Below are positions 7,056-63,483 of a stretch of 64,000 nt of DNA, piece by piece. Source of the stretch: Gammaproteobacteria bacterium (GTDB taxonomy: Bacteria; Pseudomonadota; Gammaproteobacteria; JAGOUN01); assembly GCA_046290385.1 (NCBI GenBank), contig JBKAGM010000001.1:1026-65025 (forward strand), written 5' to 3'. The notes under the pieces are model-generated. The model did no database searches, was not told the origin of the DNA, and saw only the letters and a program-made list of their open reading frames with translations. The stretch's first letter is position 1; each line of letters opens with the position of its first letter. Made by a program: the position numbers and the translations under genes.

Positions 7056-7345
7056 GTCAAGAAAATGATTTAAAAATTAGCCCTTTATTTTACGGTTTAA
7101 CTAGACCACCAATGTTGCTGGGGATAACAGTCGATTATTTGTTTGTCTGCTTTTTATTATCTTATGGGTTATTTATGTTAACAGCTAATCCGATTTATTT
7201 AGTGTCATATATCCCACTACATATCTTTGGATGGATCGCATGCAAAATAGACCCTAATATTTTTCGAGTCATTATGAAAAGAATCTCATGCGGAACAGTA
7301 CGAAACAAAATGATTTGGGGATGTCAAAGTTATGAGCCATTCTAA
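7052..7345 (+). CDS. virB3: VirB3-like T4SS inner-membrane protein
   Basis: ~97 aa; conserved GLTRP motif; ATGA overlap with virB2, and virB3 overlaps the virB4 start. Confidence 0.65.
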   Translation: MSQENDLKISPLFYGLTRPPMLLGITVDYLFVCFLLSYGLFMLTANPIYLVSYIPLHIFGWIACKIDPNIFRVIMKRISCGTVRNKMIWGCQSYEPF

Positions 7346-9839: not shown

Positions 9840-10558
9840 TGAAGTATTCAGAAAAAGTAAAAAAATGGATATTTTTAATAGGTCTCATTCCACTATCATG
9901 TTATGCAGTAATGCCAGTCATTGACCCAAATGCAATAGAACAATTGATAAAAGAGTACAGGCAGTTAAAAAATCAATATGATTTGTTGAAAGATACATAC
10001 AATAATCAACTTGCCCAGCTTCAACAGGGTAAACAAATGGTTCAGGATGCTGAAGGGCACTACGGCTATGGAGGACTGATTAATAGCGATAGTAATTTGA
10101 AATCGCGCGAATGGTCTCCAGACAATTGGCAAGATGCATTAAAAGGTTTATCAGGAGGTAATCCTGAGCGATATCAGGAGTTAGCACTACAATATCAGAA
10201 AGCACATCCAACAATGGCATTAGATGAGTTCAAGAAAGGTTCCAGCGATGAAAATGCTGATTTGTATCAAAAAAAGTCGCAGGCAACACAAGCAGCTACA
10301 GTCAATGCAACCTACGCTTTTAATGATATTAAACAACATTTAGAAAATATTCATAAAATATCAGAAAAAATCGATACGGCTGAAAATACAAAGGCAGCCG
10401 TTGACTTGAATACACGCATGCAAACAGAAATGGCTTATGTACAAGTCCAGATGCTCAAGCAAGTTGCTATTCTTAATGAACAAATGGCAGAGCGGAGTCA
10501 AGAAGAGCTTTCTGCTGATAAACAAGCGGCAGAATTTAATCGTTTACCGGATGAATAG
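9839..10558 (+). CDS. virB5: VirB5-like minor pilus subunit
   Basis: ~239 aa from MKYSEK; signal peptide; coiled-coil-rich secreted protein in the VirB5 position; its start overlaps the virB4 stop. Confidence 0.5.
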   Translation: MKYSEKVKKWIFLIGLIPLSCYAVMPVIDPNAIEQLIKEYRQLKNQYDLLKDTYNNQLAQLQQGKQMVQDAEGHYGYGGLINSDSNLKSREWSPDNWQDALKGLSGGNPERYQELALQYQKAHPTMALDEFKKGSSDENADLYQKKSQATQAATVNATYAFNDIKQHLENIHKISEKIDTAENTKAAVDLNTRMQTEMAYVQVQMLKQVAILNEQMAERSQEELSADKQAAEFNRLPDE

Positions 10559-10581
10559 TTTTAAATATACGAGGGAAATAG

Positions 10582-42938: not shown

Positions 42939-43578
42939 GTGCTTGAACTTGATTTAGTTTTTTGTGGTAAATAGTTCGTTAAAATTTTGAATTTTAGACA
43001 TGAGTCTTCTGTGACGTTTAGCGCGTGTTTTATTTTTTATTAGAAGTAATTGTCATATTCTTCGAATGTCGTACAAAATATTAATACACTAAAATCGCTC
43101 TGTAGAAATAACACCGAAGATCATCAATACGTAAATACGTTGCATCAATATGCCATTTGTTCCGAGAAAACCCTTTGCGTTTTGCGCGACATTTTAACCC
43201 TAACTCAACACCAAACGTTTGGGTCCAGTTATGGATCGTTTGATGACTCATATGAAATCGGCGCATTATTATGAGCTCTACCACATCATCCTGGCTGACT
43301 TTAAACCGATAATAGTAATGAATAGCGATCATTACCATTTCGGCAGGATGCTTGATAAAATTCAGTGGGGCGCAGCTACGTTCATTAAACTGCCTACCGC
43401 TCAGTCTGAACAACGATATTGCAATTAGCCTAACCCCGTTGAGTAATTCCAGACGTCTTTTTTGAGTTTCAATGAGCACAGTTCATAGGTTTTTTCTCCA
43501 ACATCTTTATTTGTGATTATATTCTTATAAGCAACACGCTACAAATTACAATGTTAGACTGAGTTTTGACTAAGCCAG
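42903..43578 (-). mobile_element. IS6-family insertion sequence remnant (copy B, internally deleted)
   Basis: IRs ttctgtcaaaactcagtgc (42903-42920) and gagttttgactaagcc (43561-43576). The transposase N-terminus and part of the core (43081-43479) are in one frame with no frameshift. Confidence 0.65.
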
Positions 43579-48509: not shown

Positions 48510-48801
48510 AATAGTTGTTTTTATAATTCTAATTCAGCAGCAACCTTTGAGGCTGCCAGTAAGATAGCTTACTGGAAATGAGTCGGTGTACTGAAAGTAA
48601 TGAACTACAACAAAGATACACGCTGCAATTTCATATATGAATAAATTAGCGATTATGCTGTTGGTATTTCTTAAAATATATGTAAAGACAATATATAATC
48701 GGAGTCTAATAGGCAAGAAAACTAGTAAAAATTTGTGTTTTATTGAACCCAAATACCACATTATTTAATGAATGAATTAAATAATACTACAAGGAATTCT
48801 A

Positions 48802-49839: not shown

Positions 49840-50205
49840 ATGAGAATATTAGCCACAAAATCATTTGCTAAATGGTTGAAAAAACAAAAGGTTACAATAA
49901 CTGCCTTGCAGGAAGCAGCAAATGAGGTAGTTCATGATAAATATGATGCGGATTTGGGTGGCCATATTCTAAAAAAACGACTGGGTTTCCAAGGTAGAGG
50001 AAAACGAGGAGGGTTGAGAACAATCTTGTTTTATAAACAAAACAATAGGCTTATTTTTCTGTATGGGTTTAAGAAGAATGAAAAAGCGAATATCTCGAAT
50101 ACGGAATTGGAAGCGTTTAAGGTATTTGGAAAAATCTTAAAAAATATGACAGACAGTGAAGTTGTGACGGCAATTAAATTGAAAAATTTTGTGGAGTTAA
50201 AGTAA
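49840..50205 (+). CDS. RelE/ParE-superfamily toxin (HigB-like, toxin-first arrangement)
   Basis: 121-aa basic protein just upstream of an XRE-HTH partner with a 1-nt overlap. Confidence 0.55.
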   Translation: MRILATKSFAKWLKKQKVTITALQEAANEVVHDKYDADLGGHILKKRLGFQGRGKRGGLRTILFYKQNNRLIFLYGFKKNEKANISNTELEAFKVFGKILKNMTDSEVVTAIKLKNFVELK

Positions 50206-50510
50206 TGAGAAACACAATGAAAAATGCTATTTTAGATACTGTGAATGATCTTCATAAGCAAGGTGTTGTGGATGATTTGACCTTACGTGAAATGGAGGCA
50301 CTATGCTTACCAAAGTTAAAAGCTTATTCACCAACCGCAATCAAACGCATTCGTAGAAAGTTACGATTAAGTCAAGCAGCGCTTGCTAAATTTTTAAACA
50401 CTAGTGTGTCTACTATTCAAAAATGGGAAACAGGCGCTAAAAAACCTTCTGCCATTGCAGTAAAATTGCTGAATATAGCGGATGATAAAGGCATTGAGGG
50501 ATTAATTTAG
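50205..50510 (+). CDS. XRE-family HTH antitoxin (HigA-like)
   Basis: HTH LRLSQAALAKFLNTSVSTIQKWETG. Confidence 0.65.
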   Translation: MRNTMKNAILDTVNDLHKQGVVDDLTLREMEALCLPKLKAYSPTAIKRIRRKLRLSQAALAKFLNTSVSTIQKWETGAKKPSAIAVKLLNIADDKGIEGLI

Positions 50511-50580
50511 TTTTCATTAAATTTTCTATATTCTGCTTTGATGTTACCAGTAATTTTCCTTACTGGATGTTAGACAAACT

Positions 50581-51018
50581 TCAGACTGAGTGTACGATTC
50601 CTATATGTAGCTTTTGTCCTAATATATTTAACGCATATTCAATGCGTGGAAATTTTGAAGTATAATCAGGATCAAGTAATCGACGAACTTCTTTTTCATC
50701 ACAATTGAGCTTTTTAGCTAATGCAACGTTAGTTAACTTCTTATTTCGCATCGTAATATATAATGCCGCCTTGGCCGCTAGGGTAGCGGGCAGGGCAATT
50801 AAAACCCCACTTTTTTTCGCTTTACTTGGTTTTGGGATGGCAAGCTTCATGGCCATACGGTTTGCAACGGCTTCTTCTAGACAGTCCTGAGCTTCGTGGA
50901 TTGCTTCTTGTTTATTATTGCCTTGCGTAATCGCCTCTGGAAAATTAGGGAAGCGTACCAAATATCCGCCTTCCTTCTGCTTTGCTAACTTAATAGGATA
51001 ATCAAAATATCTGTTCAT
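50581..51018 (-). CDS. hicB: HicB-family antitoxin, orphan
   Basis: Starts at MNRYFDYPIKL...GGYLVRFPNFPEA..QG....EA (UPF0150/HicB N-domain) plus a C-terminal DNA-binding region. The longer track ORF (50581-51222) extends an upstream frame that has no HicB homology. Confidence 0.6.
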   Translation of the reverse strand: MNRYFDYPIKLAKQKEGGYLVRFPNFPEAITQGNNKQEAIHEAQDCLEEAVANRMAMKLAIPKPSKAKKSGVLIALPATLAAKAALYITMRNKKLTNVALAKKLNCDEKEVRRLLDPDYTSKFPRIEYALNILGQKLHIGIVHSV

Positions 51019-51306
51019 GCCATGTCGCCTTAACTCTTTTTTAATACCTAAAAAGATTATCGAACCATTTTGACCGAATATCAACAACGACGCTCTTTCA
51101 ATGCAAGAGGAATTTGAAAAGGAGTATACTGCATAAATAACAGAAAATATCGGATAAGCTGGACCCGTTGCTGAGCTTGGTTGGCGCCAACTCCAAAATG
51201 AGCCAAAAACCGCCATGGGCAATCCTAGCGTACTGATTTTAATTAGATAAAATTGCTATTTTTTTGTAATTATTAGATTTTTCAGCTTTAATAAATATCT
51301 TTCATG

Positions 51307-51335
51307 TTGACAAACTGTTGGTTATAAACTACAAT
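51307..51335 (+). promoter_or_regulatory. sigma70 promoter of the second toxin-antitoxin pair
   Basis: TTGACA (51307-51312), N17, TACAAT (51330-51335), 23 nt upstream of the ATG at 51359. Confidence 0.5.
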
Positions 51336-51358
51336 ATCAACTATGTAAAAGGACACTC

Positions 51359-51685
51359 ATGAAGTACTTGAGATTATATAGAACGAGAAATGGAAAAGAA
51401 CCATTTGTTGAATGGGCGAGCTCTCTGAAAGATCATGTTGCCGTAGCACAAGTAAATAATAGAGTGCGTCGTTTGACTCTCGGGCAACGTGGTGACTGTA
51501 AGCGCGTGGGTAAGGGTGTTTTCGAATTACGTATTCACTATAGCCCAGGGTATCGTGTTTATTTTGCAGAACACGGTAAAGAAATTGTCATTTTGTTACT
51601 CGGTGGCCATAAAGGTTCGCAAAAACGCGATATAAAACAAGCTGTCGATTACTGGCATGATTATAAGGAGCGATACAATGAGTAA
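51359..51685 (+). CDS. RelE/ParE-family addiction-module killer protein (HigB/Gp49-like)
   Basis: 108 aa; the pattern ...GKGVFELRIHYSPGYRVYF is typical of the killer-protein family. Confidence 0.7.
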   Translation: MKYLRLYRTRNGKEPFVEWASSLKDHVAVAQVNNRVRRLTLGQRGDCKRVGKGVFELRIHYSPGYRVYFAEHGKEIVILLLGGHKGSQKRDIKQAVDYWHDYKERYNE

Positions 51686-52007
51686 AGTCAATGTGAAAAA
51701 GAGTCGTCAAATTACAGGTGATTATGTAAGTTGGTTACATACAACACTTCAAGAAAAAGAATCCGCATGTGCGCATATTCAAGTCGCTTTGGATGCCTAC
51801 CAAAAAGATGGTAATAAAAAGGCGCTTTTATTGGCATTGAAAGATGTGGCGGAAGCCCAAGGAGGTATAGGGTGGCTTGCGAAAGAAACGCATCTTAACC
51901 GAGAACATCTTTATTACTTATTATCTGGAAAAGGGAATCCACGGCTTGATACACTCAGCCTTATTTTTAAAGCGTTTGGATTTCACTTAAATATAGCTGT
52001 TTGTTAA
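51678..52007 (+). CDS. addiction-module antidote protein (HigA-family HTH)
   Basis: 109 aa from MSKVNV; 8-nt overlap with the toxin; the C-terminal NPRLDTLSLIFKAFGF pattern is typical of the family. Confidence 0.7.
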   Translation: MSKVNVKKSRQITGDYVSWLHTTLQEKESACAHIQVALDAYQKDGNKKALLLALKDVAEAQGGIGWLAKETHLNREHLYYLLSGKGNPRLDTLSLIFKAFGFHLNIAVC

Positions 52008-52227
52008 TTTAATTTTCCAAGTATCGTTAAGAAGATTTTAGAAAGACTCACGAGCGAGGTTCGTTCAAAACAAGGCTGGGAAGACTGTAAGAAGAAAAAA
52101 CGGCTTAATGGTTTGATATCTCACAGCATATGTTTACTAAATACACCAGCCTCATCTGCAAGTGAATTTAAGATGGATAGTTAAATAACATGCCAAAAAA
52201 ATCAAAAAGGGCCTCATATAAGTACTT

Positions 52228-52318
52228 GGTTAAATCTATCGGAACCATGAAAAACGGACACGTCGCACCGTAACTCTTTGTAATAACTAATAATTTCCGT
52301 CTTGATAATTTTTACACA
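52228..52318. repeat. left terminal inverted repeat of the Tn3-family element
   Basis: reverse complement matches 58044-58134 with 2 mismatches. Confidence 0.7.
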
Positions 52319-52364
52319 CATTAATTTTTTATTCTTAAAATCAATAACTTACAAGCGCTTTATT

Positions 52365-55300
52365 TCAGCCAAAATCTACCCTTTCTCTCCAGTTCCATTG
52401 GTTAATTATTTTCTCAATCACACGGTCATTGTGTTTGCCACAGAATTGGTAGTACCCCAGTAAATTAATATGACTCCAAGCACCAGGAGAGACCTTCACT
52501 AAAAAGTCTTTTTCCGATTGACTGGTTGAGTTTTCATAAAGCGTATTCAAAATGTGGGTATTGTAATACAAAATAATTGATGAAATTAGGCGGGTACACT
52601 GGTGCCATATTTCCATCTCAATTTCACTCTTACCCCTTAATTCGCCTTTGCGTAACAAGGTAATAGCTTGATACAAACGGTTGTAAGCTTCACCTCGATT
52701 AAGCGCGATCATGATGGCACGCCTGAATTTTGGGTTGTGAATGTAATTCAATAAAAACTCTGAGCGTACAATGTGGTTGTATTGTGTGAATGCTGTTTTC
52801 ATGTCACTGCGATAATTATTTGACGATAGCTTACCTATAATAATATTTGGTAATGCATCGCCTGTGAGTAATGACACAATCATGTGTTGAATGGGATCCC
52901 ATTGCTGATAAAACCTTTCAGGCTTAATGAATTTTGAAGGTTTAACAATATAGCCATCATAATCCTTAGGTGAACCAAATCCCCAGAATATTTCATTGTG
53001 AGGTTTAGGAATGCGAGGAGCAAAAGTTAAATCCGTTAAATCGAACAAAGCAAAGTTTAGTGCGTTGCAGCCATGTTTATCTGTTGAAAGTATTGAAGGT
53101 TTGACTTCTGAGGTATTTTGATGATGTACCATTTCAAATGTAAAATTTCCTTCATATTCATTGGTGCCAATGAGTCTCCCTGAAAGTGAAAATAAATTAA
53201 GAATCTCATTGTAGGCAGAGACACCAGCACCTTGACCAAAAAATTTCTGTGACCGGCGTGATTTGACGTTTCTAAATTGACTTTCAATTTTCATACCATC
53301 CAAACTGCCGTGCATTAGGCCGTCAATGTATTGCTCCTTGGCAATAGGTAACTCAAACGCGGCATTGTTAATCATATCAATAGCCGGCAAGAGCGTTTCT
53401 GTACGGAAGTAAGCGGCTTCTGCCGTTTGCAACGCTGATTCTGGAAGATCTGACATATCGGCCATTTTCTCTTTACCTGCTCGGATAGCATTCGCTAATG
53501 CTAAGCCCATAATCAGTTCATCGTCATACTCAGTTTTTGAGTATTTAGGCAATATTGACTCAAAGGCGTGAGTAAATGGGATTTTATGGCGCACAAATTG
53601 CATCACATCGACAATGCTGCGTGGCTGAAAGTGCGAGAAAAAAGCTTTATTGGGATCAGGTAAAGATTCAACTTTTACAAGACGCCAGCTTTGATTTCCT
53701 TGAGCGTCTTTTTCAATAGTAACATCAGGGTTCTCGTCGTTTAGGATGCTATGGTTAACCACGCGGTAAAGCTCATTTAACGTGCGTTCTTTTTGCTGTA
53801 AAGTATTTCGAGGTGATTTTTTGAGCTTGTCATAACCCAATCCTTTGATCAGTTTTGATTTTTCTTTAGCCCATTTTTTATCGTTGATATAATCATCCTC
53901 GATTCGCTTATGCTTAATACTGTGTTTTAAAGTTAGCTTATTAGTGCTGACATGATGCACCATACGTTGATAAAGTAGAAACTCCAATCGATGGAAGATC
54001 AATTTATTTTGGCAAAATAGATAGGGCAGGGTATCTTTACCAACCCACGTCTCTAAAGAGCGGTGGAGTGACTGATCTAAGGTTTTTGATGAAAGTAAGG
54101 CTGTCTCGACAAAGTCTACTATTTCTTGCAGAGTCGGATTATTGGTAACGATAAAATCAATGGTCAAAAAAAGTGGGCGAATATTTAGCGCAATGGCTTC
54201 TTTGTTTAAATCAACGTACTTCCAAAATAAAATATCTTGATCAAGATCTTCATTCACCAACAATTGCGCAGCTATTATCAAGTCCTCTTCATCAACGTGT
54301 TGATACAAAATGTTTCTTGGTACGTATTTTGGATGAGGATACTCTTTAATGGCCATTAGCATATTGCTGACTTTTTGCCGTGTTTCTTTGATGAGGCTGA
54401 ATTGCTTTAACACTTGCTCCTTTGCATACGTGTTTCCATGAGTGACATAATCATTGACACGCTTTTTAAACGCATCAAGCAAATTGTCATTGAGCAACTG
54501 AAATTTAGTAAAACTGTAGCAAAGTAAATAAAGCTGTGATAATTCTGGTTTTAATTGTTTTAATCTCGGACCATTATAAAATTGCACCATGTTGGCATAA
54601 TAATGGATGGTTGCAGTGGGCAAATTAAGTCTAGGTAATACTTCAATGGCTAAAAGAAATAGGGACTTTAGTTTTTCATGCTTTTTCAGTTCATTACCAA
54701 GCTCCCTAGTGGTAAAGCTTTTCATATCTTGCTTAATGCTGATGATATGGTGTTGGTTTGATGCTTTAGCCAAAAGTGAGGAAATATTCTCTCGATCTAA
54801 GGCGCTTGAGTAACGCCTAAATAGCCGTAAAATACGTTGGTGCTCTATATTCCATTGCTCAATAACGATTGCTTGTAGTGAGCTGTAGGAGGGAATAGCA
54901 ACGCGCTGTTTTATTAGTAGGTCAAGTAATGATTTGCAAAGCTGCCGTTGTCGCGGTTTATTAGGCGCTTCTTTTCTCAATGCTAACACTATTTTTTCCA
55001 ATGCAGCACCACGACAGCGATGATAGTTGCATAGTGTTAATATCTTAGTTTTTATGCGAGAAACGGCTTTATCATTCTTCAGAAATGCCCTGGGAAAACG
55101 TTGATTTGGAAAATAACGATCCATCACATGTTGACGCTCTTGTGTTACTTCACGATAGCTAAAATTAATAAATGTTTTTTTAAGCTTGAAGAAAACTAAG
55201 CTAATCGCAAAATAGACCGCATTCTCAATTGATTGAAAACGTTTTAATTCTGCTATTTCATCCTTGTTAAATGTAAAATATTCTCTACGTTCAGCGTCAT

Positions 55301-55445
55301 TCAGAATTGGAGCAGCATAAATCTCATGATACTCAGCTGCGGACAGTAGTTTTGAATTATTCCTATACACCATTATACCTACATTTTCCCCGCCACAGTT
55401 TAGTTGGATATGCTCTATAAATCCAGTAATATTGATTACTGGCAT
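52365..55445 (-). CDS. tnpA: Tn3-family DDE transposase TnpA
   Basis: ~1026 aa from MPVINITG (Tn3 TnpA starts MPVDFLT); the C-terminus SPGAWSHINLLGYYQF is typical of Tn3 TnpA. Confidence 0.85.
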   Translation of the reverse strand: MPVINITGFIEHIQLNCGGENVGIMVYRNNSKLLSAAEYHEIYAAPILNDAERREYFTFNKDEIAELKRFQSIENAVYFAISLVFFKLKKTFINFSYREVTQERQHVMDRYFPNQRFPRAFLKNDKAVSRIKTKILTLCNYHRCRGAALEKIVLALRKEAPNKPRQRQLCKSLLDLLIKQRVAIPSYSSLQAIVIEQWNIEHQRILRLFRRYSSALDRENISSLLAKASNQHHIISIKQDMKSFTTRELGNELKKHEKLKSLFLLAIEVLPRLNLPTATIHYYANMVQFYNGPRLKQLKPELSQLYLLCYSFTKFQLLNDNLLDAFKKRVNDYVTHGNTYAKEQVLKQFSLIKETRQKVSNMLMAIKEYPHPKYVPRNILYQHVDEEDLIIAAQLLVNEDLDQDILFWKYVDLNKEAIALNIRPLFLTIDFIVTNNPTLQEIVDFVETALLSSKTLDQSLHRSLETWVGKDTLPYLFCQNKLIFHRLEFLLYQRMVHHVSTNKLTLKHSIKHKRIEDDYINDKKWAKEKSKLIKGLGYDKLKKSPRNTLQQKERTLNELYRVVNHSILNDENPDVTIEKDAQGNQSWRLVKVESLPDPNKAFFSHFQPRSIVDVMQFVRHKIPFTHAFESILPKYSKTEYDDELIMGLALANAIRAGKEKMADMSDLPESALQTAEAAYFRTETLLPAIDMINNAAFELPIAKEQYIDGLMHGSLDGMKIESQFRNVKSRRSQKFFGQGAGVSAYNEILNLFSLSGRLIGTNEYEGNFTFEMVHHQNTSEVKPSILSTDKHGCNALNFALFDLTDLTFAPRIPKPHNEIFWGFGSPKDYDGYIVKPSKFIKPERFYQQWDPIQHMIVSLLTGDALPNIIIGKLSSNNYRSDMKTAFTQYNHIVRSEFLLNYIHNPKFRRAIMIALNRGEAYNRLYQAITLLRKGELRGKSEIEMEIWHQCTRLISSIILYYNTHILNTLYENSTSQSEKDFLVKVSPGAWSHINLLGYYQFCGKHNDRVIEKIINQWNWRERVDFG

Positions 55446-55570
55446 ATCTGTGTTATCATAACAAAAACAGTGCAAGCACGCTTGCACAATTAAGGAATTT
55501 ACAAAACAAGCTATTTCGCAACCCATATGGGTTCGCACACAGTATGTTTTTATTCACAAGGTGGCTATTT

Positions 55571-56671
55571 ATGAAAGACATTAACACTCCAGACAACGAT
55601 AGTAATGAATTAACAATTGAGAATATATATTCAGCAATAGCGAAACATATTCACCAAGCTCGCACTAACGTTATCAAGGCTGTTAATGCTGAGCAGGTTC
55701 TTGCTTATTGGCATATTGGTAAAATTATTGTTACTCAAGAGCAAGCGGGTGAAAACAGGGCTCGATATGGTAAGGCTCTGCTAGAAAATCTCTCAACGCG
55801 ACTACAAAAGGATTTTGGTAAGGGGTTTGGGATAACGAATTTAAAATACATGAGGCAATTCTACCTTACCTACCAAAATAGAATTGGTCACGAGGTTCGT
55901 GACGAATTTGATATTGAAGGATTTGATGAAAATTTAAGCTGGACGCACTATAGGTTATTAATCAAAGAGTTACGGCCAGAGGTACGCCGTTTTTATGAAA
56001 TTGAAGCAAGTAAAAATGGCTGGTCTACCCCTCAGCTTGAGCGACAAATGACCTCTTTTTTATTTGAACGCCTTGCTGCTAGTAAAGATACTAAATCCAT
56101 AATGAAGCTGGCTAGCGACGGTCAGATAATTCAAAAACCTGAGGACTCTTTGAAAAACCCCTATGTGCTCGATTTTCTTGGATATAAAGAACACCACAGT
56201 TACACAGAAACAGATTTAGAATCAGCTATCATTGATCACCTGCAAGATTTTTTACTAGAGCTCGGCAGCGGATTTGCCTTCATTGCTAGACAAAAGAGAA
56301 TCACTGTTGAAGGAGAAATTTTTAAGCCTGATTTGATTTTTTATCACACTATTTTGAAGTGTTACACCATTATTGATCTAAAGACCACTCGACTCAAGCA
56401 TGAGAATGTTGGTCAAATGATGATGTATGTTAATTATTATGATAGAGAGGTAAAGCGGAAAGACGATAACCCTACTATTGGCTTACTACTATGTGCTGAG
56501 CATAATGAAACAGCTGTAAAATACACGCTACCTGAAGGCAACCAACAAATTTTCTCAAGGAAATATCAACTACATTTACCAACAATTGAAGAGCTCAAAC
56601 AAGAAGTAGAACGTGAATATAAGGAAGCTATTCAACGTTTATCCCTAAATGAAAAAGACAAACAGTCATAA
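55571..56671 (+). CDS. DUF1016 (YhcG-like) PD-(D/E)XK nuclease-family protein
   Basis: ~366 aa from MKDINTP; DUF1016-like N-terminus and a C-terminal restriction-endonuclease-like fold; frequent Tn3-family cargo. Confidence 0.55.
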   Translation: MKDINTPDNDSNELTIENIYSAIAKHIHQARTNVIKAVNAEQVLAYWHIGKIIVTQEQAGENRARYGKALLENLSTRLQKDFGKGFGITNLKYMRQFYLTYQNRIGHEVRDEFDIEGFDENLSWTHYRLLIKELRPEVRRFYEIEASKNGWSTPQLERQMTSFLFERLAASKDTKSIMKLASDGQIIQKPEDSLKNPYVLDFLGYKEHHSYTETDLESAIIDHLQDFLLELGSGFAFIARQKRITVEGEIFKPDLIFYHTILKCYTIIDLKTTRLKHENVGQMMMYVNYYDREVKRKDDNPTIGLLLCAEHNETAVKYTLPEGNQQIFSRKYQLHLPTIEELKQEVEREYKEAIQRLSLNEKDKQS

Positions 56672-56689
56672 TAAGGAGGATATACTGCG

Positions 56690-57988
56690 ATGAACAAGGT
56701 TATGTTCTCCCCTAAGCCCGTTTTCGATACCATGGATGAAATTATTACGCAGTATAAATCATGTCAAAACAATAACCGTCCACAAAATATTATTAAACAC
56801 TGGTTAAATCATTGCTTTACAGAAAGCACCGTTAACCCCCCCTCATATGCAGTAAGAGATTACCAATGGGCACTTACTTTTCTATATAGCTATCGAGGCA
56901 GCAAAGACACTTTTGGCGCTTATCGTCGTGAATTAGAGCGCTTTCTACAGTGGAGTTGGTTTGTTAAAAATCAACCCGTATTAAAGCATAAACGACAGAA
57001 TATAGAAGAGTTTGCTGAGTTTTGCATGGACCCACCAAGACGATGGATAGGTCTAAAAAACGTCGCGCGATTTAAAACAGTAAATGGCGAACGCAAACCC
57101 AACAAAGACTGGAAACCCTTTGTGGTACAGGTAAGTAAAAAAGCTTTTCAGCAAGGAAAAAAACCAGATAAGCAAGAATTTCAATGCTCACACACAGCAA
57201 TGAAAGTCATGTTTAACATATTAAGTAGTTTTTATAACTACCTTATGCAAGAAGAAGTCACACAAATGAATCCCGTTGCCTTAATACGCCAGAAAAGCAA
57301 ATTCATACGCAAGGAAGCACATGCGCCTGTTGTTCGTCGTTTATCAGAGACTCAGTGGCAAATGATTCTTCAGATCACAGAAGAAAAAACACAGGAAGAT
57401 AAACAGGCAGAGCGAACGTTATTTATTTTATCTTGTCTCTATAGTATGTACTTGCGTATTTCAGAACTCATAACAACAAGTCGCTGCTCACCAACCATGA
57501 ATAACTTTATCAAAGACCAAGAGGGAAATTGGTGGTTTCGTACGGTAGGCAAAGGGAATAAAGCGCGACAAATTGCCGTTAGCCCATCAATGCTAAAAGC
57601 ATTAAGACGGTATCGAACGCAATATTTAGCCTTATCTCCCTACCCTCTGCCTGATGAAAACCTTCCGTTAATAGGTTGTGCCAATAATGCTAATCGCCCA
57701 CTCACAAGCGACAGACCACTACGAAAATGTGTTCAAGCCTGTTTTGATGAAGCAGCAGACAAACTAACAAGACAAGGCGAACAACATGAAGCTGATTTAT
57801 TACGCTCTGCGACAGTCCATTGGTTAAGGCACACTGGTATTTCAGAAGATGTTAAAATCCGTCCTAGAGAACATGTGCGTGATGACGCTGGCCACAGCTC
57901 TAGTGCAATTACAGACCGCTATATAGATATTGAGCTGCAAGAACGAGCTAAGTCTGCCAGGAAAAAAGTCATTAATAAGAATGAGTAA
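56690..57988 (+). CDS. tyrosine site-specific recombinase (TnpI/TnpS-like resolvase candidate)
   Basis: C-terminal catalytic R...HxxRH...Y pattern (HWLRHTG ... HSSSAITDRY). Confidence 0.75.
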   Translation: MNKVMFSPKPVFDTMDEIITQYKSCQNNNRPQNIIKHWLNHCFTESTVNPPSYAVRDYQWALTFLYSYRGSKDTFGAYRRELERFLQWSWFVKNQPVLKHKRQNIEEFAEFCMDPPRRWIGLKNVARFKTVNGERKPNKDWKPFVVQVSKKAFQQGKKPDKQEFQCSHTAMKVMFNILSSFYNYLMQEEVTQMNPVALIRQKSKFIRKEAHAPVVRRLSETQWQMILQITEEKTQEDKQAERTLFILSCLYSMYLRISELITTSRCSPTMNNFIKDQEGNWWFRTVGKGNKARQIAVSPSMLKALRRYRTQYLALSPYPLPDENLPLIGCANNANRPLTSDRPLRKCVQACFDEAADKLTRQGEQHEADLLRSATVHWLRHTGISEDVKIRPREHVRDDAGHSSSAITDRYIDIELQERAKSARKKVINKNE

Positions 57989-58043
57989 TTTTGGTCGCCA
58001 GGTGGATCTTGTAACCTATTGATTTTCAAAAGAAAAATCAATC

Positions 58044-58134
58044 TGTGTAAAAATTATCAGGACGGAAATTATTAGTTATTACAAAGGGTTACGGTGCGAC
58101 GTGTCCGTTTTTCATGGTTCCGATAGATTTAACC
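58044..58134. repeat. right terminal inverted repeat of the Tn3-family element
   Basis: see left IR. Confidence 0.7.
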
Positions 58135-58286
58135 TACTAGGTTTATCGCCAGGTGCATGGATTCATGTGAATCTACTTGGCTATTACCAGTTCACTGGCG
58201 AGGGATCGTACGAATACATTGAGCGTTGGATTCAGCATTGGCACTACGAGGAGCATACAGGTTTTGTTGAAAAATATAGAACGTAA
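58135..58286 (+). pseudogene. relic C-terminal fragment of a second, diverged Tn3-family tnpA
   Basis: LLGLSPGAWIHVNLLGYYQFTG resembles the C-terminus of the intact TnpA. The 5' part of the track ORF (58101-58134) is a translation of the IR. A degenerate IR-like sequence follows at ~58330-58370. Confidence 0.5.
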
Positions 58287-58388
58287 ATGCTTGTATAGCA
58301 GTGCTACTTGATTTTGCTGAAAATTCTTGCAGGACGATAATTTATTAAAAATCAGTCAGTTAAAAGCGTCTATGTAATATTTTTATTA

Positions 58389-58718
58389 TTAATGTTTGGG
58401 ATCCCTAAACAGTGTCATCATGAGACGGTTATACTGCATCCAAAAATTTTTCGGTTTTTTAGGTTCGGTGATATAAATCTGCCATGGAATGGCTTTCATT
58501 CCAGTTTTTTGAATAGCTTGAATGAGTTGAGATTCGTTTAGCTGTTTACTATTCTCTTCAATGGTCAACTTACCATTGAGCAAATCAAACCCTAATTGAT
58601 TATCGTCTGAGATATACTTTTCTAGCACGTGCTTTATAATGGCTATTTCTTCAGCACAATCCATTCCAACAATTTTAAATTCAAATCGCTTTTTGTCATC
58701 CATGGTTTTAATCTTCAA
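58389..58718 (-). CDS. hypothetical small protein downstream of czcA
   Basis: 109 aa; no motif; 4-nt overlap with the upstream ORF. Confidence 0.3.
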   Translation of the reverse strand: MKIKTMDDKKRFEFKIVGMDCAEEIAIIKHVLEKYISDDNQLGFDLLNGKLTIEENSKQLNESQLIQAIQKTGMKAIPWQIYITEPKKPKNFWMQYNRLMMTLFRDPKH

Positions 58719-59095
58719 TAATGTTTTTCAGAGCGTTTATGACACACCAAATTAATGGTGGTTTGATGCGCGCGTGCCGTTCCATGACAGCGGACCGATT
58801 TTTGGCTACCTTTAATCGAAATAACATCAACGACGAGACGTTTACCATAGCGGTTTTCTAATGAAAAAGATTGATGATCATCCGTTGTCACGGTGAGCTT
58901 GCTAACAGGATTACCATGGGCATACAGCTGAAGAATGAGAGTCGCTTTTTTCAGATTAGGACCTTCCACAGTTGAAGCTTTTTTATCATATTGCACCATA
59001 TACTTTTGCGTCACTGTGGCGGCACCAGCAATATTAGAACTGCATAGTGTTAACAGTGATATGAATAAAGTTAAAAACCATTTACAGTTGCGCAT
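58715..59095 (-). CDS. hypothetical exported protein downstream of czcA
   Basis: 126 aa; signal peptide ending AGAA; begins 3 nt after the czcA stop. Confidence 0.35.
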   Translation of the reverse strand: MRNCKWFLTLFISLLTLCSSNIAGAATVTQKYMVQYDKKASTVEGPNLKKATLILQLYAHGNPVSKLTVTTDDHQSFSLENRYGKRLVVDVISIKGSQKSVRCHGTARAHQTTINLVCHKRSEKHY

Positions 59096-59097
59096 AA

Positions 59098-62000
59098 TTA
59101 GTCTCCCAAAGAAGCTGTCGTTTCCTCTTCTTGTGGTTTCTTCGTAAAAAACAACCGATATAACACCGGTAAAACAAACAGTGTTAATGGCGTTGAAGAA
59201 AATAATCCCCCCACAACAACAGTCGCTAATGGGCGCTGAATTTCAGCGCCAACACCTCTTGCCAAAAGCATAGGGATCAAACCAAGCGCTGCAATAATTG
59301 CAGTTAATAAGACGGGTCGTAATCGAGACAGTGCGCCTTGATAAACCGCTTGATAACCTTCCATGCCCTCTTTTGCATTTCGATTAATCGCATTAACAAG
59401 CACAACACCGTTTAACACGGCAATTCCGAATAAGGCGATAAAACCAATGGAGCCTGGCACGGATAAATATTGCCCCGAAATAAACAATCCAATAATGCCA
59501 CCAATCAATGCCAACGGTACATTCACCATAATCAATAATGCTTTACTGACCGATTGAAAGGCAAAATACAACAGTAAAAATATCAGTGCTAACGATAAGG
59601 GAACTACGATCATTAATCGCGCTTGTGCACGCTCTTGGTTTTTAAATTGCCCACCATACGTCACTGTGTAGCCTGGTGGCAATTTAACTTTCGTCTGAAG
59701 TTGTTGTTTGATATCACTTACCACACTGCCCATATCACGTCCTTCAACATTCGCTTGGATCACAACACGTCGTTGCACATCATCACGACGAATTTGTGGC
59801 GGACCTGATTCTATTTCTACATTCGCCACATTGCTTAATTTCACCCAAGAACCGTTCGCCGATTGCAACATCAAATTGCCTATGGCTTCTGCCGTACTTC
59901 GATATTTTTTAGCGAGTCTCACATAAATATCATAACGCTCATTACCATTAATGACCTGCCCTGCTGTTTGACCACCAATTTCATTCGACACCAAAGACAT
60001 CACTTGACCGACAGAAATACCATAGCGCATTAATGCTTCTCGGTTCGGCTTAATGACTAGTTGAGGCTCGCCTGTGATCTGTTCCATTGCCACATCTTTA
60101 GTACCTTTCACTTGTTTGACAATCGCCTCAATCGCTTTGCCTTTTTCTGCCAATACTTTTAGATTGGGACCAAACAATTTAATGGCCAATTGTGCTTTAA
60201 CGCCAGATAATAATTCATCAACACGCGTAGCAATCGGTTGTGAAAAAGAAAATAGAAGTCCTGGAAACACATTCATCTTCTTTTCCATTAAATTTTCAAG
60301 TTGTGTTCGCGTGCGTGCGGATGTCCACTCTGAAATCGATTTTAATCCAATATATAACTCAACATTGGAAACAGGTTCGGGATCACCACCTAATTCTGGG
60401 CGTCCAACGCGACTTGAAACATAAGTAACCTCTGGAAAGGTCATTAAACGTTTCTCAAGGTTATTCGCTACTTTAAGAGCCGTTGTTAAATTAACAGAGG
60501 GAGCTAAAGTAACACGAATATTCAATGTGCCTTCTTCAAGCTGCGGCACAAACTCTGTTCCTAAAAATGGGACTAAACCTAAGGAAATAATAAATAGAAC
60601 AAGTGCGCTGGCAATCACTGTTTTTGGTTTAGCCAAAGCTTTGGCTAAAATTTTACGATAACTTTTATCAATAGGACGAAACACAAAGCTGCCTTTATGT
60701 TTTAATCCACGGCGAAAAAAGTAAGTCGCTAATGCCGGAATAACTATCAGGGCAACCAATAATGATGCGATCATGGCAAAGACAATACTTTGTGCCATAG
60801 GGTGAAATAGTTTTCCTTCTACACCCTGCAGACTAAAAATAGGCGCGAAAACCACAATAATAATTAACACCGCAAAAAATACCGGGCGCGCGATTTCACG
60901 TGCCGCTTCTTGAATGCGAAGCGCAATGCCATGGTGATTAGCCGTACTGTGGTGTGGATCACTCGATTCTAAGGCATGTGTTTTAGGATCGTGATTGGGA
61001 TCCGGCTGACTTAAGTGTTTAAAAATATTTTCCATCATCACAACGGAACCATCCACAATCATACCGATGGCTATTGCTAACCCACCTAATGACATCAGGT
61101 TGGCTGATATCCCCCACTGTGCCATCACCATTAAAGCAATGGCGATTGAAATAGGCACTGAAATTAAAACTAATAATGTGGCTCGAATGTTCAACAGAAA
61201 TAGAAATAAAACAATTAAAATGAGTATAAACGCTTCTATTAATGCTTTTACAACGGTGTGTACCGCTTTATTCACCAAGTCGGCCTGATCATAAACAGGT
61301 TTTATCTTTACACCGTCCGGCAATGCTTGCTGTATCCCCGGCAAGCGCTCTTTAATGCCGTCAATGGTCGCTTTAGTATTAGCACCCATGCGTTTTAGTA
61401 CGATCCCCGTGACAACTTCACCCAAATCGTCTGGCTGACCTTGATTGTTGCGCATCATCATACTGACAGCACCTTGGCGGATCTCTGGCGCAAACGCGAC
61501 GTTTGCCACATCTTTAACCCGCACCACCGTGCCATGTTCTTCTTTGACTGGAATATTGGCAATTTCACGCAGTCCTTTATTACCACTTTGCAACCAACCC
61601 TCACCACGGATCACGAGTTGCTCATCACCGCGATCGAGATACCAACCGCCTGAGTTACGATTATTATTCTCAATCGCATGGACAACGTTTTCAGCAGTGA
61701 TTTTGTAACTCAATAACTTTTGTGGGTTCATCTGTACTTGGTATTGTTTAACTTTACCGCCAAACGATAACACGTCGGTCACACCACCGACCGGTAAGAG
61801 TTGCAATTTAACCAACCAATCATTGAGACTACGCAGTTTCATTGCGTCGTATTGTGCTGGCTTATCTGTCGTCAAAATATATTGAAAAACTTGCCCAAGC
61901 CCTGATGTATTGGGACCAATTTCGGGTGTGCCAACCCCATCAGGAATTTCTTCCTTGGCTTTTTGTAATTGTTGGAATACTTGCTCACGTGCAAAATAAA

Positions 62001-62307
62001 TATTGGTCCCTTCTTTAAAAACAACGGTTACCACTGACAAACCCGTTTTAGAAATGGATCGCACTTCTTCGACATCTGGCAATGAATACATCACAGCTTC
62101 AATGGGAAATGTAATGAGCTGCTCAACTTCCTTGGAAGCAAGTCCAGGCGCTTCCGTATTGACTTGCACTTGGACATTAGTAACGTCGGGGAATGCATCT
62201 AAATTTAACTTAGGTAATATCAACCAAGCACCAACGGCTAACGCCAACAGCGCTAGCACAACCAGCAACCGGTTTTTAACAGAAATATCAATCAAGCCAT
62301 TTAACAT
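59098..62307 (-). CDS. czcA: HME-family RND efflux pump inner-membrane subunit (CzcA/CusA/HelA-like)
   Basis: 1069 aa; 12-TM RND architecture; N-terminus MLNGLIDISVKNR...; His-rich insertion PDPNHDPKTHALESSDPHHSTANHHG. Confidence 0.9.
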   Translation of the reverse strand: MLNGLIDISVKNRLLVVLALLALAVGAWLILPKLNLDAFPDVTNVQVQVNTEAPGLASKEVEQLITFPIEAVMYSLPDVEEVRSISKTGLSVVTVVFKEGTNIYFAREQVFQQLQKAKEEIPDGVGTPEIGPNTSGLGQVFQYILTTDKPAQYDAMKLRSLNDWLVKLQLLPVGGVTDVLSFGGKVKQYQVQMNPQKLLSYKITAENVVHAIENNNRNSGGWYLDRGDEQLVIRGEGWLQSGNKGLREIANIPVKEEHGTVVRVKDVANVAFAPEIRQGAVSMMMRNNQGQPDDLGEVVTGIVLKRMGANTKATIDGIKERLPGIQQALPDGVKIKPVYDQADLVNKAVHTVVKALIEAFILILIVLFLFLLNIRATLLVLISVPISIAIALMVMAQWGISANLMSLGGLAIAIGMIVDGSVVMMENIFKHLSQPDPNHDPKTHALESSDPHHSTANHHGIALRIQEAAREIARPVFFAVLIIIVVFAPIFSLQGVEGKLFHPMAQSIVFAMIASLLVALIVIPALATYFFRRGLKHKGSFVFRPIDKSYRKILAKALAKPKTVIASALVLFIISLGLVPFLGTEFVPQLEEGTLNIRVTLAPSVNLTTALKVANNLEKRLMTFPEVTYVSSRVGRPELGGDPEPVSNVELYIGLKSISEWTSARTRTQLENLMEKKMNVFPGLLFSFSQPIATRVDELLSGVKAQLAIKLFGPNLKVLAEKGKAIEAIVKQVKGTKDVAMEQITGEPQLVIKPNREALMRYGISVGQVMSLVSNEIGGQTAGQVINGNERYDIYVRLAKKYRSTAEAIGNLMLQSANGSWVKLSNVANVEIESGPPQIRRDDVQRRVVIQANVEGRDMGSVVSDIKQQLQTKVKLPPGYTVTYGGQFKNQERAQARLMIVVPLSLALIFLLLYFAFQSVSKALLIMVNVPLALIGGIIGLFISGQYLSVPGSIGFIALFGIAVLNGVVLVNAINRNAKEGMEGYQAVYQGALSRLRPVLLTAIIAALGLIPMLLARGVGAEIQRPLATVVVGGLFSSTPLTLFVLPVLYRLFFTKKPQEEETTASLGD

Positions 62308-62325
62308 GTATCTTTCCCTTGCATA

Positions 62326-63483
62326 TTAATGGTTATGCGTACTAAACCCACCTTTGAGTGATTCAGAATGCACAAAGAAGGCACCTTTCGTCACAATACG
62401 AACACCGGGTTTGAGTCCTTTAATAACCCGCCACGGACCTATTTTTTTTGTGACTTGAACTTCTTGCGCCTGAAAATGATTCGGTTTTACTTCAATATAT
62501 ATAGCCTGATCCCCATCAGGTGTACGCATCAATGTGGTTTGGTGAACCGCTAACACCGGTTGGGTTTCGCCAGTTTGAATAAGGCAAGTAACAAATTCAC
62601 CCGGATGCAATTGATCTTTAGGGTTCGGTACATTTAATCGTACAACACGTGTTCTGGTGGTCTCATCAAGCTTATGATGAACCTGTAACACCTCAGCAGC
62701 TAATTCATGATGGGCAGTTTGAACAATAGCTTTTGCACCTTTTTCAATTTTTGCCGATTCACCATTTGATAATTTAGCATCGACCCAAAGACTTGTTTCA
62801 TCCACGATTTTATAAAGCGTATTACCCGGCTCAATCATCTGACCTTTTGTAAAATCTGCCGAAAAAATAGTCCCGCCACGTCGTGCTAATAATGTAAATT
62901 CTCCATTGGCTTTAGTGGGATCATCCGATTTAAGAAAGACTTCGATTTGTTGGCGTGTCATGCCATAAGCAAGCAACTTTGAATACGCTTGTTGATATGC
63001 AATTTCCGCTGTTTGATAACGTTTTGCGGATACCGCTTGCTTACCAAGCTGCTTAACTCGCAGCCATTCTTTTTGTGCAAGCAGGAGTTCTGCTTGTGCT
63101 TTAGCCATATCAACACTGGACAAACGTACTAGAGGCTGGCCTTGTTTAACATGGTCACCAATTTTAACTAAGCGCTGTATGACTTGAGCCTGAATTCGTG
63201 GCGTAACAATCGCCGTTAAATCTTTATTCGGAATGGCTTCACCCGGGGCACTGATATAAATAGGTAATGATTTGGCTTTCAAAATTTCTGTTTTAATTCC
63301 GGCGGCTTGCTGTCCTTCGGGACTAATTTCAATTAACCCTTCTTCTCCATGCTTATCTTTTTGTTGATTGGCAATGGTGGTTGGTGTTTTATTAGCAGAG
63401 TGCCCGTGCTCATCACCTGCATAAGCTGTCTGAATTGAAATGAGCAGTACACTCATTAATAAAAACCACCCATATTTCTTCAT
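62326..63483 (-). CDS. czcB: RND membrane-fusion (periplasmic adaptor) protein CzcB/HelB-like
   Basis: 385 aa; signal peptide; His-rich N-terminus (GDEHGHSANKT); MFP-family lipoyl and beta-barrel domains. Confidence 0.8.
   Translation of the reverse strand: MKKYGWFLLMSVLLISIQTAYAGDEHGHSANKTPTTIANQQKDKHGEEGLIEISPEGQQAAGIKTEILKAKSLPIYISAPGEAIPNKDLTAIVTPRIQAQVIQRLVKIGDHVKQGQPLVRLSSVDMAKAQAELLLAQKEWLRVKQLGKQAVSAKRYQTAEIAYQQAYSKLLAYGMTRQQIEVFLKSDDPTKANGEFTLLARRGGTIFSADFTKGQMIEPGNTLYKIVDETSLWVDAKLSNGESAKIEKGAKAIVQTAHHELAAEVLQVHHKLDETTRTRVVRLNVPNPKDQLHPGEFVTCLIQTGETQPVLAVHQTTLMRTPDGDQAIYIEVKPNHFQAQEVQVTKKIGPWRVIKGLKPGVRIVTKGAFFVHSESLKGGFSTHNH

Follow-up and report, generated by a model that had tools for sequence, protein, structure and literature searches.

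A 64,000-nt stretch of DNA from a Gammaproteobacteria metagenome-assembled genome (hereafter, the window) contains an apparently intact Tn3-family transposon of ~5.9 kb at positions 52228 to 58134. Our analysis indicates that this is likely a functional replicative transposon that belongs to a previously unclassified clade of transposases (TnpA) and is resolved by its own XerL-family tyrosine recombinase at a dif-like core site, with the nuclease gene yhcG as a swappable component. The transposase logic of the element is ordinary; what is new is the resolution module and its recurrent, allele-swapping YhcG partner. Judging from the sequence, the element is real and probably active, and its boundaries and family membership are secure. 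Three intact genes lie between the terminal arms, encoding a Tn3-type transposase, a DUF1016_N/YhcG_C protein and a tyrosine recombinase; domain searches agreed on this point with an earlier note on this DNA, which had placed the same three genes inside the repeats. The features of the element are as follows:

52228 to 52329 (+): terminal inverted repeat on the left (tnpA-proximal) side, matching the right arm at 98 of 102 positions and aligned without gaps to the repeats of relatives
52228 to 52274: conserved TnpA-end core of the left repeat (outer ~47 nt, GGTTAAATC...GTAAC), shared with relatives
52365 to 55373 (−): tnpA, Tn3-family DDE transposase, 1002 aa (Pfam DUF4158 and DDE_Tnp_Tn3; the open reading frame reaches 55538)
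55423 to 55442 (no strand): candidate resolution core, dif-like, CCAGTAA-TATTGA-TTACTGG (CCAGTAATATTGATTACTGG), in which two perfectly inverted 7-bp arms surround a 6-bp spacer
55470 to 55487 (−): palindrome GTGCAAGC-AC-GCTTGCAC, resembling an intrinsic terminator that would act towards tnpA
55520 to 55533 (no strand): palindrome AACCCATATGGGTT upstream of yhcG, a possible operator
55571 to 56671 (+): yhcG, DUF1016 PD-(D/E)XK nuclease, 366 aa, first gene of the yhcG-recombinase operon (Pfam DUF1016_N and YhcG_C)
56690 to 57988 (+): 432-aa tyrosine recombinase of the XerL family (53% identity to XerL of Legionella pneumophila), presumably the enzyme that resolves cointegrates
58033 to 58134 (−): right (recombinase-proximal) terminal inverted repeat, at the tip of which homology to the sister element L062 ends

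A repeat search of the window returned a single standout inverted pair (52216 to 52329 versus 58033 to 58146), which BLAST trimming reduced to the two arms listed above (98 of 102 positions identical). The ~90-bp terminal inverted repeats proposed earlier are real, as the first 91 nt of the arms differ at only 2 positions, and one 34-nt segment within the repeat has exactly two occurrences in the window versus none in 100 shuffles (0 expected). Terminal repeats of the Tn3 family measure ~38 to 48 bp and typically start with GGGG; here, a conserved core of ~47 bp sits within the 102-nt repeats. Both arms share the tip GGTTAAATC. It reads GGTT where the repeats of most relatives start with GGG or GGGG and is, therefore, a diverged canonical tip. 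Among the >40 related loci that were fetched for comparison, the ends of relatives could be aligned with the window arms over ~47 to 55 nt (GG(G/T)..., GGAAnAATGAAAA, ACA, GTAAC, TTGAT). The closest relative, L062, is 77% identical to the window in the N-terminus of TnpA and 74% identical in the recombinase; its tip, GGTTAAATCTATCGGAACC, matches that of the window, and its flank is unrelated. DNA homology between the window and L062 stops at the right tip, which independently confirms the right terminus. When PLSDB plasmids were searched at the DNA level, for near-identical as well as distant matches, the element itself was not recovered, and the flank matched only toxin-antitoxin fragments. 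A 35-nt repeat-like stretch within yhcG (55963 to 55997), 71% complementary to the inner terminal repeat, showed no extension and was put down to chance. A further contig with the exact TnpA (L001, 5873 nt) ends ~17 nt inside the tips, which we attributed to inverted-repeat collapse in the assembly, and it was left unused as evidence of copy number.

TnpA carries the two domains that define the Tn3 family, with Pfam E-values of 1.2e-84 and 1.2e-21 (DUF4158 N-terminal region and DDE_Tnp_Tn3 catalytic domain), and its conserved acidic residues are invariant across 46 sequences. All 45 full-length homologues from the clade (40 to 56% identity) start at the methionine at 55373, so that the protein has 1002 aa instead of the 1026 aa of the first gene model, whose extra 24 codons would overrun the candidate core site. 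The TnpAs of PLSDB plasmids are at most 31% identical (Bacillus elements being the best, followed by IS3000 and Tn4401 at ~28% and Tn3 at 24%), and a metagenome protein set held ~60 clusters at 40 to 56% identity. Source labels within the clade include Gammaproteobacteria, Alphaproteobacteria, Pseudomonadales, Thiotrichales and Candidatus Paracaedibacter. By these comparisons, the clade is coherent and previously unclassified. Long terminal repeats (70 to 170 nt) are typical of its members, and perfect 5-bp target duplications were found in relatives L025 (GAGTT), L014 (ACACT) and L023 (ATATA). On one 34-kb contig, a clade member is present in duplicate, as 5.4-kb copies in direct orientation that are 99.9% identical (L009/L010, 6375 to 11820), each with a recombinase, TnpA and a MazE/PemK pair; matching 5-bp flanks were found in no pairing of the two, and they may represent an unresolved rearrangement or an assembly artefact. 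A gene for RdgC is a recurrent passenger in the clade, accompanying either type of resolution module (L004, 4438 to 5334; L014, 387 to 1292; and the P0079 locus), and is placed after the recombinase gene in L004 and at the P0079 locus.

In the Legionellales, chromosome dimers are resolved at a palindromic dif site by XerL, which acts as a single tyrosine recombinase and is plasmid-encoded in Coxiella (PMC9765430); the protein was reported to be restricted to this order (Nicholson et al. 2022, PMC9765430). The recombinase of the element is 53% identical to L. pneumophila XerL (Lpg1867; sequence taken from Table S3 of PMC9765430) over 388 aa (E = 3e-144), with the catalytic tyrosines in register (Y387 in Lpg1867), and its best annotated relatives come from Coxiella burnetii virulence plasmids (CBUA0010, 54%) and Legionella (50 to 55%). 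The family alignment shows no variation at R256, K288, H377, R380, H402 and Y411, in agreement with homology to XerL. The AlphaFold model (pLDDT 80) matched XerD, XerH, lambda Int and Cre and has no arm-binding domain; the Foldseek matches were generic only (Xer, Cre, lambda Int), and a PDB sequence search with the recombinase and YhcG was uninformative. The same arrangement, i.e., a 428- to 450-aa tyrosine recombinase divergent from tnpA across an intergenic region of 57 to 216 nt, occurs in 18 elements, among which the recombinases (55 to 76% identity) are better conserved than TnpA. A protein search returned 5726 matches, with >120 clusters at ≥58% identity. In a neighbour-joining tree, the transposon-linked recombinases and two lone homologues formed a clade in 60 of 60 bootstraps, apart from the Legionella and Coxiella XerL proteins. 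The two lone homologues stem from metagenomic contigs, one of them from an Alphaproteobacteria-labelled assembly. Lone XerL-like genes 61 to 73% identical to the transposon ones were observed in metagenomic contigs L058 (an Alphaproteobacteria-labelled assembly) and L059.

The earlier note had suggested TnpS/TnpI-type resolution in place of a serine resolvase. A tyrosine recombinase as the likely resolvase stands, but the assignment to the TnpS or TnpI type gives way to XerL: we detected no similarity between the recombinase and Tn4651 TnpS (from pWW0), and similarity to Tn4430 TnpI is at the superfamily level only (24% identity; hhalign E = 1e-4, probability 54%). Nor does the recombinase group with phage integrases linked to an attachment site. 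It is, on the evidence of alignment and tree, an XerL-family homologue and not a functional orthologue of the chromosomal XerL, because it lies inside transposon repeats, in a conjugation and toxin-antitoxin region, and falls into a separate subclade. Specifically, a role in resolving chromosome dimers at a terminus-proximal dif does not fit a gene enclosed by transposon terminal repeats. The XerL family, earlier reported only in the Legionellales, thereby appears linked to the resolution modules of mobile elements, and our data show close XerL homologues to be common on mobile elements outside that order. In the literature, our coverage of which was incomplete, no Tn3-family element was found to have been described with a resolvase that is XerL-like or linked to DUF1016.

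A short palindrome between tnpA and the operon is the candidate site of action. The intergenic regions between tnpA and the recombinase gene (or tnpA and yhcG) at 16 loci and in the window have in common the motif CYAGTAA-N6-TTACTRG, in which the arms are conserved, the spacers vary and a T-rich tract lies on the tnpA side. Of the ~18 related transposons with this recombinase, all except one carry such a dif-like core in the gap. In elements that lack yhcG, the intergenic region shrinks to as little as 57 to 90 nt, and the core lies ~20 to 22 nt upstream of the recombinase start; the lone recombinase genes of L058 and L059 likewise have a 7-6-7 palindrome 22 nt upstream of their start. The format resembles that of the XerL site, a perfect palindrome with 10- to 12-bp arms around a short spacer, but the arms here measure 7 bp and the spacer 6 bp. 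Legionella plasmid homologues carry a 10-6-10 palindrome (AGTCCAATAG-TTTATA-CTATTGGACT), and a Coxiella plasmid carries GTGATTA-CTTTGA-TAATCAC upstream of its recombinase gene. Since conserved arms with free spacers beside a recombinase gene are the signature of loxP/dif-like cores, we infer that 55423 to 55442 is the res site. Such a site had been anticipated within 55446 to 55570; a candidate core was indeed found, but it lies just outside that range because the TnpA model used was too long. A promoter-like −35 box overlaps the core, a single match that is no more than the chance expectation, and a terminator scan gave 1 site (versus 0.1 expected), the palindrome at 55470 to 55487. No TnpI-style accessory repeats were seen in the intergenic region. 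A candidate core and an intact recombinase, which would form the internal resolution module of a Tn3-family element, are present and conserved across the clade. Sites of the same format were also located outside transposons:

L058, 2086 to 2105 and 5960 to 5979: a pair of sites separated by 3.9 kb, on either side of an Ada/AlkA gene and a hypothetical gene
L059, 5960 to 5979: one 7-6-7 palindrome
Window, 48556 to 48575: extra perfect copy of the core arms, CCAGTAA-GATAGC-TTACTGG, outside the element
Window, 50547 to 50566: extra perfect copy of the core arms, CCAGTAA-TTTTCC-TTACTGG, outside the element

The two extra window sites bracket a DUF6194 gene and a RelE/Xre pair, and their spacers differ from each other and from that of the internal core. 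Three exact core sites thus fall within 7 kb, versus a shuffle mean of 0.76 with one mismatch allowed. The extra sites could represent res sites that have become fossils, sites for the resolution of plasmid dimers or boundaries of exchangeable modules.

YhcG matched PADLOC model PDC-S02 (E = 1.5e-134) and retains the D...(D/E)xK nuclease residues of the DUF1016/YhcG family. DUF1016 rides on many unrelated mobile elements (PMC4316617), and restriction-modification loci, as well as mobile elements, are known to harbour DUF1016/YhcG (PMC4316617, PMC9881135). In the window, 18 nt separate yhcG from the recombinase gene. The gene occurs in 6 of the 18 elements (window, L062, L004, L018, L022 and L034), always between the core and the recombinase gene and on the recombinase strand, with a gap of 8 to 28 nt or an overlap. 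Including two Legionella plasmids (L057 and L051), which have no tnpA and show the order palindrome, secondary palindromes, yhcG and xerL-like gene, no other gene was found to occupy that slot. The L. fallonii version consists of the DUF1016 N-terminal domain only and overlaps the recombinase gene. In both of these plasmid units, which are probably plasmid dimer-resolution modules, the yhcG/xerL-like operon is preceded by two palindromes, one dif-like (core CCAATAGTTTATACTATTGG) and the other GCTCAC...GTGAGC (L057, 2595 to 2620; L051, 5250 to 5285).

At least four YhcG lineages, with 24 to 33% identity between them, occupy the same slot. The window YhcG is ~30% identical to that of the L004 group, 33% to that of L057 and 32% to that of L062, which in turn is 52% identical to the Legionella plasmid allele. 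At the DNA level, the window and L062 cease to be homologous at the core and become so again ~115 nt ahead of the yhcG stop codon, a pattern of cassette replacement. Within the L004 group, YhcG (72 to 84% identity) co-varies with the recombinase and TnpA does not (L004 versus L018: YhcG 84%, recombinase 76%, TnpA 51%), indicating that the yhcG-recombinase block has been exchanged between backbones, presumably at the core. On this distribution, the association of yhcG with XerL-like modules is not random. The gene had been viewed as DUF1016 cargo with a possible defence role. The recurrent fixed slot and the replacement of alleles do not fit simple cargo, whereas the PDC-S02 match is compatible with defence, although to our knowledge no experimental defence phenotype has been described for the DUF1016/YhcG family. 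YhcG could be a defence-type nuclease expressed from a recombinase-controlled promoter or a modulator of recombination; the gene itself is a swappable nuclease cassette tied specifically to XerL-like modules.

In the mechanism that we propose, TnpA would bind the ~47-bp cores of the long terminal repeats and generate cointegrates, as expected from knowledge of the family, and the XerL-family recombinase would resolve these at CCAGTAA-N6-TTACTGG, between the divergent tnpA and yhcG-recombinase units, as the comparison of loci suggests. XerL is necessary and sufficient for recombination at short palindromic dif sites, whether these are on the same molecule or on different ones, and the same is true in yeast (Nicholson et al. 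2022, PMC9765430). Because XerL acts alone, a close homologue should need no helper to resolve cointegrates. More speculatively, recombinase bound at the core, which overlaps the −35 box, might repress its own operon.

Several observations weigh against this mechanism or limit its reach. TnpA scored 493.6 bits with the NCBIfam model transpos_Tn3, short of the cut-off of 500. The arms of the core are 7 bp long versus 10 to 12 bp in the Legionella and Coxiella dif sites, and the flanks of the element match at 4 of 5 bases, without a clean target duplication. The lone recombinase genes with a core and no tnpA (L058, L059) allow other roles for the recombinase. Finally, clade sisters carry TnpS/TnpT, so that the XerL-type module is interchangeable and does not define the clade. 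Loci L013 to L017 belong to the same TnpA clade (53% TnpA identity) and have GGGG tips; L014 (227 to 6907), which has the perfect ACACT duplication and was examined in detail, carries a TnpS/TnpT pair and the RdgC gene in place of the XerL-type module. Its TnpS is 37% identical to TnpS (E = 1e-56) and TnpT was detected as well, which served as a positive control for the TnpS/TnpT search. Resolution modules are thus interchangeable on the TnpA backbone.

The fixed position of yhcG raises the possibility, which we consider doubtful, that YhcG is an integral, TnpT-like helper that binds the lineage-specific palindromes and controls the selectivity, direction or timing of a two-protein resolvase. 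Its exclusive hold on the slot, always on the same strand, in six transposons and two Legionella plasmids, the passage of at least four divergent lineages through that slot and the reduction of the L. fallonii version to a DUF1016 N-terminal domain overlapping the recombinase gene are all in keeping with such a role, as are the palindromes: the other yhcG-bearing relatives have their own lineage-specific palindrome pairs at the same position. However, one of the window palindromes is terminator-like, 12 of the 18 elements retain the core and the recombinase without yhcG, and XerL works free of cofactors, even in yeast (PMC9765430). As XerL is autonomous and many elements lack yhcG, an essential helper is disfavoured. 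Moreover, conserved catalytic residues suggest an enzyme that cuts rather than an architectural protein, and allele replacement between similar elements, the PDC-S02 match and the presence of DUF1016 on many unrelated mobile elements (PMC4316617) fit a defence-type passenger. It seems to us quite improbable, in turn, that the recombinase and core serve mainly as an integration or module-exchange system (IMEX-like or Acinetobacter pdif-like), with cointegrate resolution secondary. The extra core-arm copies that bracket the toxin-antitoxin/DUF6194 block, the excess of exact sites over shuffles, the paired sites beside the lone recombinase gene of L058, the swapping of yhcG-recombinase between tnpA backbones (L004 versus L018) and the ability of XerL to catalyse intermolecular integration (PMC9765430) would all suit such a system. 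Yet the three window sites have different spacers and should not recombine together, there are no recombinase or tnpA remnants near the sites at 48556 and 50547, and 18 elements have their core and recombinase strictly between the terminal repeats and beside tnpA, the res position of the Tn3 family. Resolution of cointegrates by the element's own XerL-family recombinase remains the reading we favour.

The history of this particular copy can be read from its right side, where the following relic of a second transposon (271 bp) adjoins the element:

58135 to 58286 (+): last ~50 codons and stop codon of another tnpA of the same clade (tblastn, 74% identity to P0030 residues 957 to 1010)
58359 to 58405 (−): the relic's own terminal inverted repeat (tip GGGATCCC, at 58405), aligned without gaps to clade repeats and closest to L025

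The C-terminal tnpA fragment reported outside the right arm is therefore genuine (74% identity to the clade member P0030), the degenerate repeat placed at ~58330 to 58370 is in fact the relic repeat at 58359 to 58405, and, with both a tnpA 3′ end and a terminal repeat of the same clade present, the element does adjoin the end of an older relative. Nested arrangements beside a fragment of another Tn3-type tnpA were also seen in L017 and L010. Elsewhere in the window, we found no second copy of the relic terminal repeat, no solo repeats and no remnants of tnpA, the recombinase gene or yhcG. The flanks TACTT (52223 to 52227, left) and TACTA (58135 to 58139, right) had been taken for a 5-bp target duplication, which is doubtful. 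The tnpA similarity of the relic sets in precisely where the element stops, whereas the left flank, translated in the relic frame, contains a stop codon and shows no tnpA similarity within 1.2 kb. Since the upstream part of the relic tnpA is thus missing from the left flank, the two flanks were probably not contiguous before insertion, and the match at four of five bases may reflect chance or an AT-rich target preference. On the most economical reading, the copy inserted into the 3′ end of the tnpA of an older relative, after which the left (tnpA-proximal) flank would have been replaced through a deletion or inversion caused by intramolecular transposition or through recombination between copies. 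We think it rather unlikely that the element instead inserted by simple transposition into an already truncated relic, with TACTT/TACTA as a real duplication that suffered one later mutation. A 4/5 match has an estimated chance of ~3% in AT-rich DNA, which speaks for a true duplication; however, with the first base of the relic right at the junction, an earlier truncation would have to coincide with the later insertion point, which is improbable. A left flank that has a stop codon and is devoid of tnpA similarity is better explained by an adjacent deletion or inversion (through intramolecular transposition) or by recombination of two copies. Translated in the relic frame, the right repeat gave a TnpA-like peptide (C.KII...YY), which was dismissed as chance (DNA similarity of 12 versus a shuffle maximum of 14).

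Compared with known systems, the module is closest to XerL/dif, with which it shares the same catalytic residues and a site that adjoins the gene, as in Coxiella and on Legionella plasmids; the candidate site is also similar in format, a short perfect palindrome around a central spacer. It differs in its location, which is inside a Tn3-family transposon on a conjugative element and not at the replication terminus, in its shorter arms and in its proteins, which form their own clade (60/60), come in many cases from Alphaproteobacteria-labelled assemblies and have an N-terminus ~25 to 30 aa longer. TnpI/IRS of Tn4430 and Tn5401 also pairs a single tyrosine recombinase, acting as a Tn3-family resolvase, with an inverted-repeat core beside the gene, and the recombinase can be aligned to Tn4430 TnpI over its full length (24% identity). 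TnpI, however, has 284 aa versus 432 aa here, tnpI is colinear with tnpA and not divergent, and IRS (IR1-IR2 core) has accessory direct repeats, none of which were seen here, where the entire intergenic region can measure as little as 57 nt; the element thus departs from the TnpI type in size, gene order and site. TnpS/TnpT/rst of Tn4651 and Tn5041 likewise combines a tyrosine recombinase with a second protein and has palindromes between divergent genes, but neither the recombinase and TnpS (323 aa) nor YhcG and TnpT (332 aa, KfrA_N-like) show similarity, and yhcG lies upstream of and co-directional with the recombinase gene, not divergent from it, and is dispensable in most relatives. XerS/difSL and XerH/difH are also modules of a single Xer/Cre-like recombinase with a nearby dif-like site (PMC9765430), and XerH and XerD are among the best structural matches of the recombinase model (10 to 14% identity in structural alignments); these are chromosomal housekeeping systems, however, and not transposon modules. 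Unlike PADLOC PDC-S02, the YhcG studied here has a fixed slot in an XerL-like recombinase operon. IS1071/Tn1071, another member of the Tn3 family, also stands out for the length of its terminal inverted repeats (~110 bp) but is not known to carry a resolution module.

The element and its ~18 relatives point to a fourth type of resolution module for Tn3-family transposons, composed of an XerL-type recombinase and a minimal loxP/dif-like core. Transposon homologues at 50 to 55% identity, many of them from assemblies of other classes, alter the picture of XerL as Legionellales-restricted and apparently vertically inherited, and the origin of the Legionella/Coxiella XerL system becomes testable. 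A tentative extension of these results is that XerL and its dif-like palindrome form a portable module that moves among Tn3-family transposons, plasmids and chromosomes of intracellular or amoeba-associated Alpha- and Gammaproteobacteria; the Legionellales dif/XerL system would then be a domesticated copy or the source, YhcG nucleases would be specific, rapidly exchanged partners, and the sites at 48556 and 50547 would mark pdif-like exchangeable modules. The fixed, allele-swapping slot of yhcG also offers a concrete context in which to study uncharacterised DUF1016/PDC-S02 nucleases, and because XerL works unaided in yeast, the 20-bp cores are of possible practical interest as orthogonal recombination sites.

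With regard to genomic context, VirB4- and VirB10-type type IV secretion genes are present at 7332 to 15043, which makes a conjugative plasmid or integrative conjugative element the probable identity of the contig. Together with toxin-antitoxin pairs and a CzcA-type efflux operon in the window, these genes suggest that the transposon sits in the accessory region of such an element. Three toxin-antitoxin-like units were observed to the left of the transposon (49840 to 52007), all outside its terminal repeats:

49840 to 50510: RelE and HTH/MqsA-like genes
50581 to 51222 (−): HicB-like gene
51359 to 52007: Gp49/HigB-like gene and HTH antidote

To the right of the relic, a minus-strand heavy-metal efflux cluster (58389 to 63483) encodes an HMA-domain protein, a small open reading frame, a CusA/CzcA RND pump and a membrane-fusion protein, with the stop codon of the HMA gene overlapping the tip of the relic terminal repeat. 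Further to the left, a short open reading frame (43081 to 43479) shows a weak match to an IS240-type DDE domain and is possibly the remnant of an insertion sequence.

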